Virus record (IMG/VR): IMGVR_UViG_3300037467_002425
Coordinates: 1 to 55,352 of that record
Length of the DNA: 55,352 bases
Direction: 5' to 3' (one strand)
Origin: a virus
Lineage: Duplodnaviria > Caudoviricetes
Below, in pieces: positions 31,648 to 35,928 of the stretch. The position numbers and the translations under genes are program-made. The notes under the pieces were generated by a model. The model did no database searches. It saw only the letters and a program-made list of their open reading frames with translations, and was not told where the DNA came from. The first letter of the stretch is position 1. Every line of letters starts with the position of its first letter.

Positions 31648-32091
31648 ATGAGCGGAATTGTATATATAGCGGATATTGTAAAAGCTTCTGTACCAGAAGA
31701 AATCATCTTGATCGATGATAGGATGGGGTACGACCAGACACGCCTAGCTTCTGATTTGACAGATAATGAATTCGCTACTGTAGGCATGTTGGGAATGATA
31801 AGCGGCGGCGATGTTTTTACAATTCCTGCAGGAACTCCTATACCATTTTTCATTGATATTTCCTTACATGCAGGTAAAACTGCAAATACAGAAGTAATTA
31901 CAAAAGCTACATCTTATGATCCATCTACAGGCATTGCTACGGGCCGGTTACAACGGTGGTATGATATGCTTATTGAAGATCAGGATACGAATAATGACGG
32001 TACAGGAGATTTTACAGGCTGGAATATTTACGGGCATGATGATGGCGCCGGTAATTTTAAAGAAGATACAATCATAATTTTGAAAGGATGA
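31648..32091 (+). CDS. Virion accessory protein with a domain shared with the tail terminator
   Basis: IPAGTPIP...[17 protein letters not shown]...F.EDT.I.L. Confidence 0.65.
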
Positions 32092-33863
32092 AAAAATTAT
32101 TATTTTTTATTTTTCTATTACCTGTTTGGTGCTTTGCTCAAACAAATTTTGCACCTCAGTTCAAAAGAAATATTCCTGCGGATAGCTTATTAGGATATTC
32201 TATACCAGGTATTAACGGTAATCACTGGTTACCGGATACGAACTGGGTTAAAAAACATGGCGGACAAGATTTAATTTCTAAAGCGACTGATTTTGAAGGG
32301 GTAGGAACAACGAGTGATAAGTTTGGATTGAGAGATACGCTGTTAAAATCTCATTGGGTTATAGCTAGCGGAGATGTACTAAATCCTGCTTTAACATTAG
32401 TGCAAAAAGGTTCCCAACCTGGATTACGCATTGAAAATGGAGAAAATGTTGATGGCCGGTCAGTTATATGGTATATATCTACTAAAGGAAGTAAATTTTT
32501 TGAAGTTGGTGTTAATTCCGCGGGCCTTAATCATGATTATGCAATTAGAAATGTAAACGGAGCTATTACACCGGCTGTTGATTTTATAATGACAATTGAT
32601 ACAGATATTACAAGATGGTATCATCCGGTAATATTTAGTGGACAACGAACAGCTTCAACAGCGGATAGTGTGTGGGGGGTAAAGAATGATACATTAGTTA
32701 AAGTACCGTTTTCAAGCAGTAGTGGTACAGTTACATCTATCACCCCAGGTATTGGATTCACGAGCCATACGCCAATTACCAGCGTAGGCACGATGAATGT
32801 TGATACGGTATCAACTATTGCTACTCTGTATTATGCATCTACAATCGTTGGACCTGATGGAGTAGTTACCGGCATGAGCCCCGTAACGGTTTCAGGAACT
32901 ACGGCAACCGTCCCATCGGGAACTTATAGGCTTAACAATACTTTAATTACCAAAGGGTCAAGTACCAACGTTACCATCGACCCCCAGGATGCAACATCGG
33001 ATAGGATTGATCTGATTGTAGGTGATGCATCAGGAGTATTAAGTAAAGTCAGCGGTTCGCTTGCGGCTACACCGGCTCAGCCTGATGTTCCGTCAAACAA
33101 AGCACTTATTTCATGGGTGTATATTCCCGCAACCGGGGGAACGGTAACTACAGGCGGTGGGGGAAGCACAAAAGGCACTGTTACAACTGTAAAAGGAGTT
33201 AACGCTAATGGGTTTACGTTTTCAATAGTAAATCCCACCACAACGCCAACTATTACTTTGGCTTTGCAAAATGCTACGGCATCACAATCCGGCCAGTTGA
33301 CTTCAACAGATTGGAATACGTTTAATAATAAGCAATCGGCATTAACATTTTCAACTGGATTGATAAACAACTCAGGAACCGTAAAGGGCGATACTACGGT
33401 TTTACAAACAATTGCTAATTTCTTCCCAAAAGGCGATACGAGGTATTATAAGGCATCTAACCCATCTGGATATATAAGCACCATTTCGGGCATAGCAGCT
33501 GGCGGGGATCTCACTGGTACATACCCTAATCCTACGTTGGCTAATACCGCCGTAACAGCCGGGTCATACACCAACGCTAACATTACTGTTGATGCTAAAG
33601 GGCGTATTACAGCGGCGGCAAATGGTAGTGGCGGCGGCTTAGCATCTTCCAATTTCGTTTACGGTGAGGTGCCGTCCGGTAGTATTAACAGCACTAACGT
33701 TACTTATACGCTTGCAAATACACCCACATCAGGAACGGTAAACGTATTCTTAAACGGCAATAGACAGACTATTACTACCAATTACACAATATCAGGTTCG
33801 ACCATAACATTTACTTTCCCTCCGCAAACAGGGGATGTTATCGCAATTAATTACATGAAATAA
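32088..33863 (+). CDS. Tail-fibre-like protein with an N-terminal Sec signal peptide
   Basis: [18 protein letters not shown]. Fibre repeats [33 protein letters not shown] and DWNTFNNKQ; small C-terminal beta domain. Confidence 0.75.
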
Positions 33864-33864
33864 G

Positions 33865-35928
33865 ATGAAAAAATTACTTTTTATATTACTGCTATTTCCT
33901 TTGTTTTCCTTCGGTCAACAGGGTGGAATAACTATAAATCAGATTCAGCCTAATTTTCAAACGGGGGGCGTTTGGCATCCAATGGCTACTGCTATGACGC
34001 CAGACCTTGTTGCTGACGCGTCTAATATACAGGAGCCGTGCGTACTCTACGAGGGATCACCACAGGTAATAACAGATGCAACGGGAAGCGTTTATAAAAT
34101 GCTTTTTACAGCAGGAGGCAGCACACAAAATATAATGTATGCAGAGTCGGTAGATGGTAACGATTGGGTAAGGCGCAGCACTATATGTATAGCCAATCAC
34201 GCGAGAACATCACTTTTAAAAGTGGGTTCGACTTATTACTGCTATTGTGTGCCGACATCTGGATTCGGTCAGGTAGATGTTTACACGTCTACAGATATGA
34301 TTAACTGGACATTGGCGGCGGCGGCAATCATAACCAAAGGAAGCGCAGGCACATGGAATGGTAGTTCCGTAGCTAATATGGCGCTTTATTACGACGGAAC
34401 CACATATCATATGTTGTTATCTGGCACAAATGGAGGTACTGCACCATTTACTACCGGATATTATCATTCAACGTCTCCAACAAGCGGATGGACTGCTTAC
34501 GCTAGCAACCCCGTATTGGGAGTTATGAACGGTAACGCTATGCAAGCCTCTTATCTCACAAAAGTAGGCAGTACTTATTACTGCTGGGCTTTTGGAAATA
34601 GCGTAAATAATTTTTTACCTTCAGATATTTATACATATGAATCAACTAATTTAACTACATGGACTGCGCATAATAGCGGCAATCCGACTTTTCCTAGATC
34701 GCAAAGTGACGAAGGCGTAGGAAGATCTGCCGGGCAAGTAGCTAATCCATTTTTAGTTGAAGTGTCAGGTAAAACTCATATGTTCTATGAAGCAGGAGGC
34801 GATGGCTCTGGTAGTGGCGCAGGTGCGCATATAAAACACGCTATAGCAAATTTGACTATTGCAAATTTAGCTTTAACAACTGAGGGGAATGGCTCTGCTT
34901 TAACACCAGAGCAGGTCGTTAATTCATATACAAAAACAGCTAGCGATTTAAATTATATTCCTAATGCAACCAATGTGGGGGCTAATGCTACATGGACGCC
35001 AGGTTCTATTTTACTAGGTGTTGATCCTGCAAATGATTACGGTATAAGACTTAGAAACTCGACTACAACTACAACCTTTTCATTTCTTGATTATAGCAAT
35101 TTGGCTTTTTATGCTTCCGGTGGAGTAAATAATAATTTTGCTGGAAATAGTACTGGCATTACTCTTAACGCGTGGAATAATATTAATTTTAAAAATGTAT
35201 CAGGATCTGGCACAACGAGCTTGGGGAATTTTGACAATACGGGTTTGTTAACCACTACTAACGGCGTTAATACAAAAGGGGGCGGTTTTTTCTTTTCACC
35301 GACTTCTGCCTATGGGGCATCTGTAAACCCTGCTGTTAATTTACAAAATAGTAGTGCAGCTACTTCTGGAACAGTTTCAAGATATTCTCCTGCTATTTAT
35401 CAAGTGGGGTCTGCATGGACTGGATCGGCATCTCAACAAGCTCAATTTTATTCCATTCTTGAGCCTGTCTCCGGAACAAATCCAATTACGTATAATTATC
35501 TCTGGCGCCATAATATAAATTCAGGAGGGGATGCAGATGTAATGAAATTAAATAGCAATGGCACATTATACCCATCGCATTTGGGCAGTCTAACATCCGC
35601 CCCAACTATAGCCGCCGGAACAGGAGCAGGTACATCGCCAACTGTTTCAATAGCAGGAAATGACATTGCTCAAAAAGTAACTATAACCACCGGCTCAAGC
35701 CCTACGGCATCTGCTACCGTTGCAACTATCACATTTAATGTGGCCTATACTACTGCGCCTAGGGTAATATTAACGCCTGCCAACGCCAATGCAGCAGGAC
35801 TTTCGGGCGCATCTCAGGTGTATGTAGATGATTCTAGTATAGGAACAACCTCATATGTTATTTCAGTTGGTTCTGGAGGTCTTACAGCAAGTACAACCTA
35901 TTTATTTTATGCGCACGTAATACAATGA
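33865..35928 (+). CDS. Fibre/spike-like protein with a signal peptide and a five-bladed beta-propeller glycoside-hydrolase-like domain
   Basis: MKKLLFILLLFPLFSFG|Q. Propeller blades EPCVLY, YAESVDG..W, S.D..NW, NPVL, NPFLVE; Ser/Thr/Gly-rich C-terminal half. Confidence 0.7.
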   Translation: MKKLLFILLLFPLFSFGQQGGITINQIQPNFQTGGVWHPMATAMTPDLVADASNIQEPCVLYEGSPQVITDATGSVYKMLFTAGGSTQNIMYAESVDGNDWVRRSTICIANHARTSLLKVGSTYYCYCVPTSGFGQVDVYTSTDMINWTLAAAAIITKGSAGTWNGSSVANMALYYDGTTYHMLLSGTNGGTAPFTTGYYHSTSPTSGWTAYASNPVLGVMNGNAMQASYLTKVGSTYYCWAFGNSVNNFLPSDIYTYESTNLTTWTAHNSGNPTFPRSQSDEGVGRSAGQVANPFLVEVSGKTHMFYEAGGDGSGSGAGAHIKHAIANLTIANLALTTEGNGSALTPEQVVNSYTKTASDLNYIPNATNVGANATWTPGSILLGVDPANDYGIRLRNSTTTTTFSFLDYSNLAFYASGGVNNNFAGNSTGITLNAWNNINFKNVSGSGTTSLGNFDNTGLLTTTNGVNTKGGGFFFSPTSAYGASVNPAVNLQNSSAATSGTVSRYSPAIYQVGSAWTGSASQQAQFYSILEPVSGTNPITYNYLWRHNINSGGDADVMKLNSNGTLYPSHLGSLTSAPTIAAGTGAGTSPTVSIAGNDIAQKVTITTGSSPTASATVATITFNVAYTTAPRVILTPANANAAGLSGASQVYVDDSSIGTTSYVISVGSGGLTASTTYLFYAHVIQ

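Follow-up and report, generated by a model that had tools for sequence, protein, structure and literature searches.

Signal-peptide-like N-termini with glutamine at the predicted cut on tail-end and lysis-region genes of a siphovirus-like phage

Signal-peptide-like N-termini on four late genes

The window analysed here, a 55,352-bp stretch of DNA, corresponds to the whole virus record IMGVR_UViG_3300037467_002425 (Caudoviricetes), with direct terminal repeats and an estimated completeness of 100%. Its late genes include four large open reading frames (ORFs), named A to D, whose N-termini resemble Sec signal peptides followed by Gln. ORFs A and B lie at the end of the tail genes and ORFs C and D among the lysis genes. 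The features of this region, all on the plus strand, are given below; AF2 stands for AlphaFold2, pLDDT for its per-residue confidence score, and a slash marks a predicted cleavage site.

24738 to 28634, plus strand: tape measure protein, 1298 residues, no signal peptide; homologous and syntenic in three other phages (L002, L081 and L082)
28624 to 30606, plus strand: distal tail or baseplate protein, 660 residues, no signal peptide; phrog_33803, E 6e-12
30606 to 31646, plus strand: tail protein, 346 residues, no signal peptide; residues 17-78 match phrog_27786 (tail spike), E 1.3e-6
31648 to 32091, plus strand: conserved 147-residue protein, its stop codon overlapping the start codon (ATG) of ORF A; mean column identity 75% in a four-phage alignment
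32088 to 33863, plus strand: ORF A, 591 residues, fibre-like by position, repeats and modularity
32088 to 32138, plus strand: predicted signal peptide of ORF A, 17 residues, CFA/Q; called by the heuristic described below, modelled by AF2 as a helix over residues 3-16
32139 to 32258, plus strand: conserved module of ~40 residues at the predicted mature N-terminus of ORF A, candidate docking module (alignment and profile search)
33501 to 33617, plus strand: fibre repeat motifs of ORF A, residues 472-482 (33501-33533) and 489-510 (33552-33617)
33645 to 33860, plus strand: C-terminal beta domain of ORF A, ~70 residues, pLDDT 77-86, conserved in many fibre-like homologs
33865 to 35928, plus strand: ORF B, 687 residues, C-terminal half without assigned fold (ORF list and AF2 model)
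33865 to 33915, plus strand: predicted signal peptide of ORF B, 17 residues, MKKLLFILLLFPLFSFG followed by Q, SFG/Q; called by the heuristic, pLDDT < 50, outside the fold
33970 to 34869, plus strand: predicted five-bladed beta-propeller of ORF B, GH43-like (Pfam, AF2, Foldseek)
36273 to 37459, plus strand: four small ORFs, two of them (36273-36662 and 37172-37459) with hydrophobic, membrane-like stretches
37491 to 38552, plus strand: ORF C, 353 residues, predicted signal peptide, Ser/Thr-rich linker and right-handed beta-helix; PF13229, E 4e-7
38666 to 39151, plus strand: HNH endonuclease between C and D (family scans)
39156 to 40199, plus strand: ORF D, 347 residues, predicted signal peptide and beta-helix; PF13229, E 8.8e-9
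40230 to 40736, plus strand: M15 peptidase endolysin, no signal peptide; PF13539, E 1.2e-14, and endolysin PHROGs
40740 to 41048, plus strand: 102-residue protein with hydrophobic stretches, following the lysin; a near-identical ORF is present in L082

Signal-peptide-like N-termini were detected with a crude, home-made heuristic requiring a K or R in the first 6-7 residues, no D or E, and a 9-10-residue window with a Kyte-Doolittle value of at least 2.2. It flags five of the 140 ATG-initiated ORFs of at least 50 residues in the window, i.e., A, B, C, D and one small membrane ORF. Among the 17 ORFs of at least 300 residues, the four flagged ones (starting at 32088 for A, 33865 for B, 37491 for C and 39156 for D) all belong to a single late-gene block. 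The four N-termini present a K/R start, a hydrophobic core of ~10 residues, a Pro at the boundary between core and cleavage region, a small residue at -1 and a Gln at +1, with predicted cleavage sites CFA/Q in A, SFG/Q in B, CTA/Q in C and ALC/Q in D. In the AF2 models, the signal peptides of A and B are predicted to sit outside the folded domains. A sequence-only reading of this DNA had noted such N-termini, followed by Gln, on two large genes in the fibre position. Both are found exactly where it placed them, as ORFs A and B, and the feature extends beyond that description to ORFs C and D, which it had omitted.

The same heuristic flagged no large ORF in four control phages: Flavobacterium phage 11b (0/8), Bacteroides phage B40-8 (0/11), Flavobacterium phage FCL-2 (0/16) and the first 50 kb of Cellulophaga phage phi38:1 (0/12). 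In 79 mixed viral loci, fetched solely for fibre repeats in common with ORF A, 14 of 257 large ORFs were flagged, 12 of which have Gln at +1 according to a crude cut-site rule. Signal-peptide-like starts on large phage ORFs are rare, and nearly all of those present have Gln at +1. These control counts therefore indicate that the signal is not a chance property of phage ORFs. A Gln at +1 is presented, in two articles on the subject, as a hallmark of Bacteroidota signal peptidase I (SPI) substrates, the residue becoming pyroglutamate in the envelope (PMC5837995; PMC10653852). The N-termini of A to D are very probably working Sec/SPI signals, as judged from their layout and cut-site residues.

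Two other export routes were considered and rejected. Type IX secretion system (T9SS) cargo was ruled out on the NCBIfam models, none of which matched A to D at E ≤ 1 for a T9SS C-terminal domain; the single NCBIfam T9SS match was a stray 11-bit alignment of the signal peptide of B with the N-terminus of PorU. Lipoproteins cut by signal peptidase II were ruled out by eye: in A, C and D, Cys is preceded by residues that depart from the lipobox pattern, and the signal peptide of B contains no Cys. With neither a T9SS domain nor, by eye, a lipobox, the default site of A to D, if exported, would therefore be the periplasm. Cys counts were uninformative.

The fibre-like protein A, the propeller protein B and the beta-helix proteins C and D

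ORF A occupies the fibre position in a conserved gene order. All four syntenic phages (the window, L002, L081 and L082) encode, one after the other, the tape measure, proteins of ~660, ~350 and ~150 residues, and a fibre with a predicted signal peptide, the ATG of which overlaps the preceding stop in 4/4 cases. In the window, this overlap with the 147-residue gene is ATGA, and ORF B begins 1 nucleotide past the stop of A. The 660-residue protein is about 70% identical in L081 and L082 and weakly matches a protein of Flavobacterium phage 11b, and the 346-residue tail protein, without Pfam family, has an N-terminus resembling those of tail spikes.

The counterparts of A in L002, L081 and L082 start with the same signal peptide and the following ~40 residues, which are then joined to unrelated bodies of 763, >728 and 786 residues; in L082, this counterpart is the sole long fibre gene. 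An alignment of 11 A-type proteins likewise shows conservation ending at about residue 57. When a profile built on residues 1-75 of A was searched against 1.84 billion cluster representatives (E ≤ 0.001), 40 matching representatives were recovered. In 30 of them, the match covers residues 1 to ~60, and these 30 proteins, which span 98 to 1766 residues and have unrelated distal parts, all pass the heuristic. All 30 also have an A, G or S followed by Gln at the predicted cut, across 28 distinct signal-peptide sequences, so that what is conserved is the signal-peptide feature and not its sequence. Read with the rule that Bacteroidota SPI substrates expose Gln, the retention of Gln(+1) in 30/30 diverged proteins therefore suggests that the peptide is really cut. 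Tail fibres are built as a conserved N-terminus placed before exchangeable distal parts; in the A family, the conserved N-terminal piece includes the signal peptide.

The remaining 10 of the 40 profile matches correspond to internal repeats of a short Gly...Trp motif. In nine unrelated long proteins (P0152, P0154, P0161, P0162, P0165, P0168, P0169, P0171 and P0173), residues ~30-58 of the profile match 4 to 14 internal repeats, the Gly...Trp unit returning about every 60-70 residues in P0154; in P0174, residues 9-29 of the profile are matched instead. A common repeat may be the origin of the candidate docking module, or be mimicked by it.

No Pfam, PHROG or NCBIfam family matches ORF A. Among 8000 proteins scored, 908 relatives were found at E ≤ 0.001, mostly through the repeat region and the C-terminal beta domain, and homologs of A carry DUF5907 and Mtd_N. 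The typical fibre repeats that the sequence-only reading had attributed to the first gene are indeed present, as the motifs at residues 472-482 and 489-510, and the repeat region matches 394 viral loci. The sole tblastn match in the phage collection, at the level of the repeats, is a protein of an Alicyclobacillus phage, 58% identical over residues 459-508. The nearest Atlas clusters of A are all viral, some carrying Phage_tail_C, PTL_trimer or Mtd_N, with scores of 0.81-0.84 that fall below the 0.9 bar and make them a lead only. Besides the 30/30 N-module proteins, 28 of the 120 homologs of A listed pass the heuristic, with different signal peptides also ending in A/Q, the rest having signal-less fibre N-termini.

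The AF2 model of A has a mean pLDDT of 46.6, too poor for a fold search. Three parts alone reach some confidence, namely the helix of the signal peptide, the C-terminal domain and a domain formed by residues 255-350. A complex prediction combining three copies of the 147-residue protein with three copies of A residues 18-80 scored 0.06 against a mark of 0.32, a value that counts neither for nor against an interaction. From its gene order, start overlap and modularity, ORF A behaves like a modular tail fibre.

ORF B had also been described as a fibre, a part of the sequence-only reading that does not hold in the way it does for A: B is not fibre-like in sequence, and family and fold analyses confidently point to a GH43-like propeller protein. 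Residues 111-312 match Pfam PF04616 with 39.1 bits (gathering cut-off 32.2). The AF2 model, built on a 14-row alignment, predicts a five-bladed propeller with pLDDT mostly between 85 and 95 over residues 36-335, residues 1-34 and most of residues 341-687 having pLDDT < 50. In Foldseek, the best match of the propeller is BT_0996 (E 1.7e-12), followed by GH130, GH43, GH117 and GH62-type hydrolases, and the alignment of B relatives presents invariant columns such as E283. Among these relatives, the propeller is found behind several different signal peptides, in signal-less proteins and, in the single case of P0126, preceded by fibre repeats and an N-module resembling that of A.

ORFs C and D are paralogs (35% identical, E 2e-37) located inside the lysis cassette, between the small ORFs and the endolysin. 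No family was found for the small ORFs at 36273 to 37459, whose equivalents in L082 precede the lysin; their position makes them holin candidates. The 102-residue protein that follows the endolysin is a putative holin or spanin. The endolysin ORF is listed from a TTG and has an odd, Cys-rich N-terminus; two adjacent Met codons about 16 codons further in look like the true start, which would give a signal-less M15 lysin.

The relatives of C differ at their N-termini. A homolog in L082 (10645-11853, 44% identical) has a Gly/Ala/Ser-rich N-terminal membrane segment and no cleavable signal; it lies between small membrane ORFs and a 214-residue gene read, by eye and position, as a lysin (GH25-like). 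In these two related phages, the beta-helix enzyme would thus be directed to the membrane in different ways, through a predicted cleavable signal in C and a transmembrane anchor in the L082 homolog. This membrane segment is reminiscent of the signal-arrest-release (SAR) domains of some endolysins. The sole cultured-phage relative of C, Cellulophaga phage phi17:2 gp052 (30% identical), has neither signal nor anchor.

Cultured analogues, genome context and probable host

Genes of comparable architecture are present in three cultured Cellulophaga phages of different families. The siphovirus phi10:1 (53.7 kb) has five consecutive signal-peptide genes, gp091 to gp095, located past the tape measure and distal tail genes and ahead of small membrane ORFs. 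Their signal peptides end in SAQ, FGQ, SAQ, NAQ and FSQ, respectively, and three of them are annotated, gp093 and gp095 as 'pectate lyase' and gp094 as 'tail fiber protein'. The portal, capsid, tube and tape measure proteins of phi10:1 and the protein following the latter have no signal peptide. In phi18:3, gp085 to gp087 are signal-peptide-like, as are gp31 to gp34 in Ingeline_1, so that all 12 of these tail-end proteins combine a signal-peptide-like start with Gln at +1. The record note 'annotation based on experimental MS/MS proteomics analysis' (MS/MS, tandem mass spectrometry) is attached to gp091-gp094 of phi10:1, and an MS/MS proteomics note to all three phi18:3 proteins; the Ingeline_1 genes have no MS/MS note. 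According to these depositors' notes, 7/8 of the signal-peptide tail-end proteins of phi10:1 and phi18:3 are thus marked as virion proteins.

The modular pattern of the A family is also found in these phages. In phi13:2, Nekkels_1 and phi18:3, 'pectate lyase' or 'tail protein' genes of another construction open with a stretch that has 88-93% identity to residues 1-42 of phi10:1 gp094, its signal peptide among them. As in the window, a conserved N-terminus is fused to differing fibre or lyase bodies, and consecutive large genes with a signal peptide and Gln follow the tape measure and distal tail genes and precede lysis. The enzyme domains differ, being annotated pectate lyases in the Cellulophaga phages versus a predicted GH43-like propeller and beta-helices in the window, and the virion MS/MS notes belong to the Cellulophaga phages and have no counterpart for the window proteins. 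Two small ORFs of the early region of phi10:1 (758-1231 and 19215-19607 of locus L084) have lipoprotein-like starts, with a Cys after the hydrophobic core; phi10:1 therefore likely encodes envelope lipoproteins away from its tail genes.

The window further codes for a large terminase, a portal, an HK97-type major head protein, a tail terminator, two major-tail-protein paralogs, a DNA polymerase and a primase-helicase, in addition to the 1298-residue tape measure and the lysis region with the M15 endolysin. No sheath gene was identified among the window proteins scanned. With this set of head, tail and lysis genes and no sheath, the window therefore looks like a lytic siphovirus-type phage. No close cultured relative was found: a megablast of positions 30000-40500 against the phage collection was empty, tblastn of ORF B against the same collection gave no match, and in 50,697 phage records, identity to the capsid protein does not exceed about 26%.

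Several other genes were assigned by family scans. Between the portal and head genes, the minus strand carries a block of co-directional genes (10038-17693), which includes:

10584 to 11582, minus strand: GT4-like, weak match below cut-off
12241 to 12858, minus strand: FkbM methyltransferase
12855 to 13583, 15339 to 15851 and 17160 to 17693, minus strand: three HNH/NUMOD4 homing endonucleases
14806 to 15348, 15842 to 16516 and 16513 to 17175, minus strand: GT2-type glycosyltransferase matches, the last below cut-off

One HNH gene separates two GT2 pieces that match the front and the middle of the GT2 profile, and may split a single glycosyltransferase gene. Virion protein, DNA and host glycan are all candidate targets of the glycosylation. 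Further along the window, on the minus strand, are found:

44016 to 45167: DUF2800/PD-(D/E)XK nuclease, E 2e-132
50000 to 51361: SNF2-type helicase
51343 to 52365: C5 cytosine DNA methylase

The host is probably a Bacteroidota bacterium, because the signal peptides follow the Gln rule and the only cultured-phage relatives are flavobacterial phages. Two further results lend no support to this assignment. No prophage relative was found in the 185,579 species genomes scanned with the N-module alignment, and a Bacteroidota promoter motif was not enriched in the window (5 matches versus 3.67 expected).

Proposed export, cleavage and attachment of the tail-end proteins

In the textbook view, tailed phages assemble entirely in the cytoplasm. 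From the sequence features of the N-termini and their conservation, the gene position, the modularity and the predicted folds of B, C and D, we infer a different route, in which export, cleavage, periplasmic folding and attachment at lysis follow one another. Proteins A to D would be made late in infection, along with the tail genes, and threaded unfolded through SecYEG. A cut behind the small residue would leave Gln as the new N-terminus, and the exposed Gln would be cyclised to pyroglutamate, as expected from the Bacteroidota Gln rule. The processed proteins would then fold in the periplasm, A as a modular tail fibre with its ~40-residue mature N-terminus as docking piece, and B as a GH43-like propeller protein binding or cutting a glycan. 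A and B would reach head-tail particles built in the cytoplasm and attach only once holin and endolysin breach the envelope. Glycans of the envelope or capsule would be the targets, at exit, of C, D and any A or B left unattached.

The most likely reading of the gene predictions is that A, B, C and D are genuine Sec/SPI substrates of a siphovirus-like phage. By analogy with the Cellulophaga phages, A and B are probably virion-associated. To the complete chain, from export and cleavage to Gln or pyroglutamate through periplasmic folding to attachment at lysis, we give a probability of about 0.5. The sequence-only reading had left a choice between export followed by attachment and a released adhesin; the MS/MS-marked Cellulophaga analogues favour the former over a purely released adhesin.

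A number of observations weigh against this reading. The signal-peptide calls were made with the home-made heuristic and by eye, and the Cys at -1 in ORF D is atypical. Nor do all phages of Bacteroidota have the trait, no large ORF being flagged in the four control records. The Bacteroidota O-glycosylation sequon D[ST][AILVMT] is not clearly enriched (6 in A versus 3.0 expected, 0 in B). The support for a place in the virion is by analogy: A to D have no homology to the Cellulophaga signal-peptide proteins at E ≤ 1e-3, so that the likeness is architectural, the trait being found in unrelated siphophage lineages. The virion marks themselves rest on depositors' record notes, and a protein detected in such a preparation could have been secreted, or carried in vesicles, and purified along with the virions. 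An internal start at Met40 or Met44 of B, which are in frame just before the propeller (33982-33996), may yield a signal-less isoform. Finally, two ORFs that follow the signal-peptide fibre in L002 (10241-12515) lack a signal peptide, as judged by eye. One of these two ORFs has a C-terminal module in common with P0123, a signal-peptide-bearing homolog of B; modules therefore seem to move between signal-bearing and signal-less tail proteins.

Of the alternatives, an unlikely one that survives best is that A to D are exported without being virion parts. They would be glycan-binding or glycan-cutting proteins, free in the periplasm or released, that mask or destroy receptor or capsule, or that help lysis; their roles would be superinfection exclusion or keeping progeny off debris, the signal-less 346-residue protein would be the true receptor-binding protein, and the Cellulophaga MS/MS signals would stem from co-purifying material. 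The location of C and D inside the lysis cassette, the enzyme-like folds predicted for B, C and D and the signal-less, tail-spike-like protein just upstream of the 147-residue gene would all fit. Exported phage proteins encoded beside tail genes also exist: lambda Lom, T5 Llp and phi80/N15 Cor have a signal peptide and lie beside receptor-binding genes, and some of them block the receptor. These are small lipoproteins or outer-membrane proteins that lack both fibre repeats and enzyme domains and so differ from A to D, which are 347-687 residues long, with no lipobox by eye and, for A, fibre-like modularity.

A further parallel comes from Porphyromonas gingivalis prophages. In the part of their article concerned with these genes, Matrishin et al. 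(2023, PMC10367356) report five prophage genes annotated without function that have Gln-rule signal peptides and, as in the window, a predicted SPI cut exposing Gln, read as a Bacteroidota Sec adaptation; the phages are temperate and the products are suggested to modify the outer membrane, being read as envelope modifiers and not as tail fibres. Against export without attachment stand the pattern of an attached fibre in A, with its conserved N-terminus, variable distal part and start overlap in 4/4 phages, and the L082 counterpart being the sole long fibre gene of its phage. The MS/MS marks on 7/8 of the analogous Cellulophaga proteins point in the same direction, as does the lack of a T9SS C-terminal domain or, by eye, a lipobox that would carry the proteins past the periplasm.

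It is still less probable that the N-termini go unused for export and that assembly is cytoplasmic as usual, the hydrophobic segment serving to nucleate trimers, to tether tail assembly transiently to a membrane or to insert into the outer membrane of the host at infection. Such an explanation needs no new assembly route, fits the virion MS/MS notes equally well and agrees with the segment belonging to the conserved N-terminal module. However, the 28 sequences keep the n-h-c layout, and the 30/30 Gln at +1 would be the signature of a processed signal rather than of a structural element; unrelated fibre families bear unrelated signal peptides with the same A/Q ending. An N-terminus combining Lys-Lys with a hydrophobic core would moreover be expected to engage Sec, and the AF2 models leave the segment unpacked from any domain.

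A dual fate, with one part of the proteins exported as free enzyme or adhesin and a signal-less or unexported part (from an internal start, or upon late saturation of Sec) built into virions, is very improbable. In its favour, Met40 and Met44 of B stand immediately before the propeller, and free and virion-bound forms of phage depolymerases exist in other systems. Against it, nothing points to internal initiation, and the scheme is possible for B and not for A, whose next Met after the start is residue 168, so that no signal-less A could keep the conserved N-module.

The preferred reading, in which A to D are exported and A and B join the particles at lysis, has partial precedents. Sec-exported lysis proteins (endolysins with signal peptides or SAR domains, spanin lipoproteins) are likewise late, use the host Sec and wait in the envelope until lysis; C and D, within the lysis cassette, and the L082 homolog with its Gly/Ala-rich N-terminal membrane segment, provide a link to them. 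Unlike A and B, as proposed here, they have murein or membranes as their targets and do not form part of the virion, and the endolysin of the window is signal-less. Inovirus coat proteins are virion proteins with Sec signals assembled outside the cytoplasm, as in our proposal. Inoviruses nevertheless differ in assembling at the membrane and being extruded without lysis, whereas the window has a terminase, portal, HK97-type capsid, tail tube, tape measure and lysis cassette.

In full-text searches, with most subscription journals outside their scope, we found no paper treating the signal peptides of tail fibres as an assembly question. Bartlau et al. (2021, PMC8776804) mention 'signaling peptides' on Ingeline and Nekkels lyase proteins in one sentence, which draws no consequence for assembly. 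In a passage of Benler et al. (PMC6199706), the lack of signal peptides on phage target proteins of diversity-generating retroelements is taken as support for a phage origin. Signal-peptide tail-end genes, as predicted in the window and its analogues, appear to recur in some Bacteroidota siphophages and have received almost no discussion. We would only tentatively extend this to the idea, somewhat short of even odds, that a group of Bacteroidota tailed phages builds its outermost tail in another compartment, from fibres and glycan-cutting spikes that are exported, provided with pyroglutamate, perhaps O-glycosylated, and attached to the cytoplasmic head-tail particles only in the seconds of envelope breakdown. 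The question is testable in the Cellulophaga phages phi10:1 and phi18:3, which have the same feature, are cultured and have virion MS data.

A signal cut between a small residue and Gln, on large genes at the tail end, could serve as a sequence flag for Bacteroidota hosts in viromes, and, if the proposed route is true, recombinant fibres or depolymerases of such phages should begin at the mature Gln. The fibres could then bear modifications available only in the periplasm, i.e., disulfides, pyroglutamate and Bacteroidota O-glycans, and the last step of virion assembly would be tied to lysis. Secretion and processing enzymes of the host would become phage dependency factors, with the infectivity of the progeny hinging on Sec, signal peptidase I and glutaminyl cyclase.

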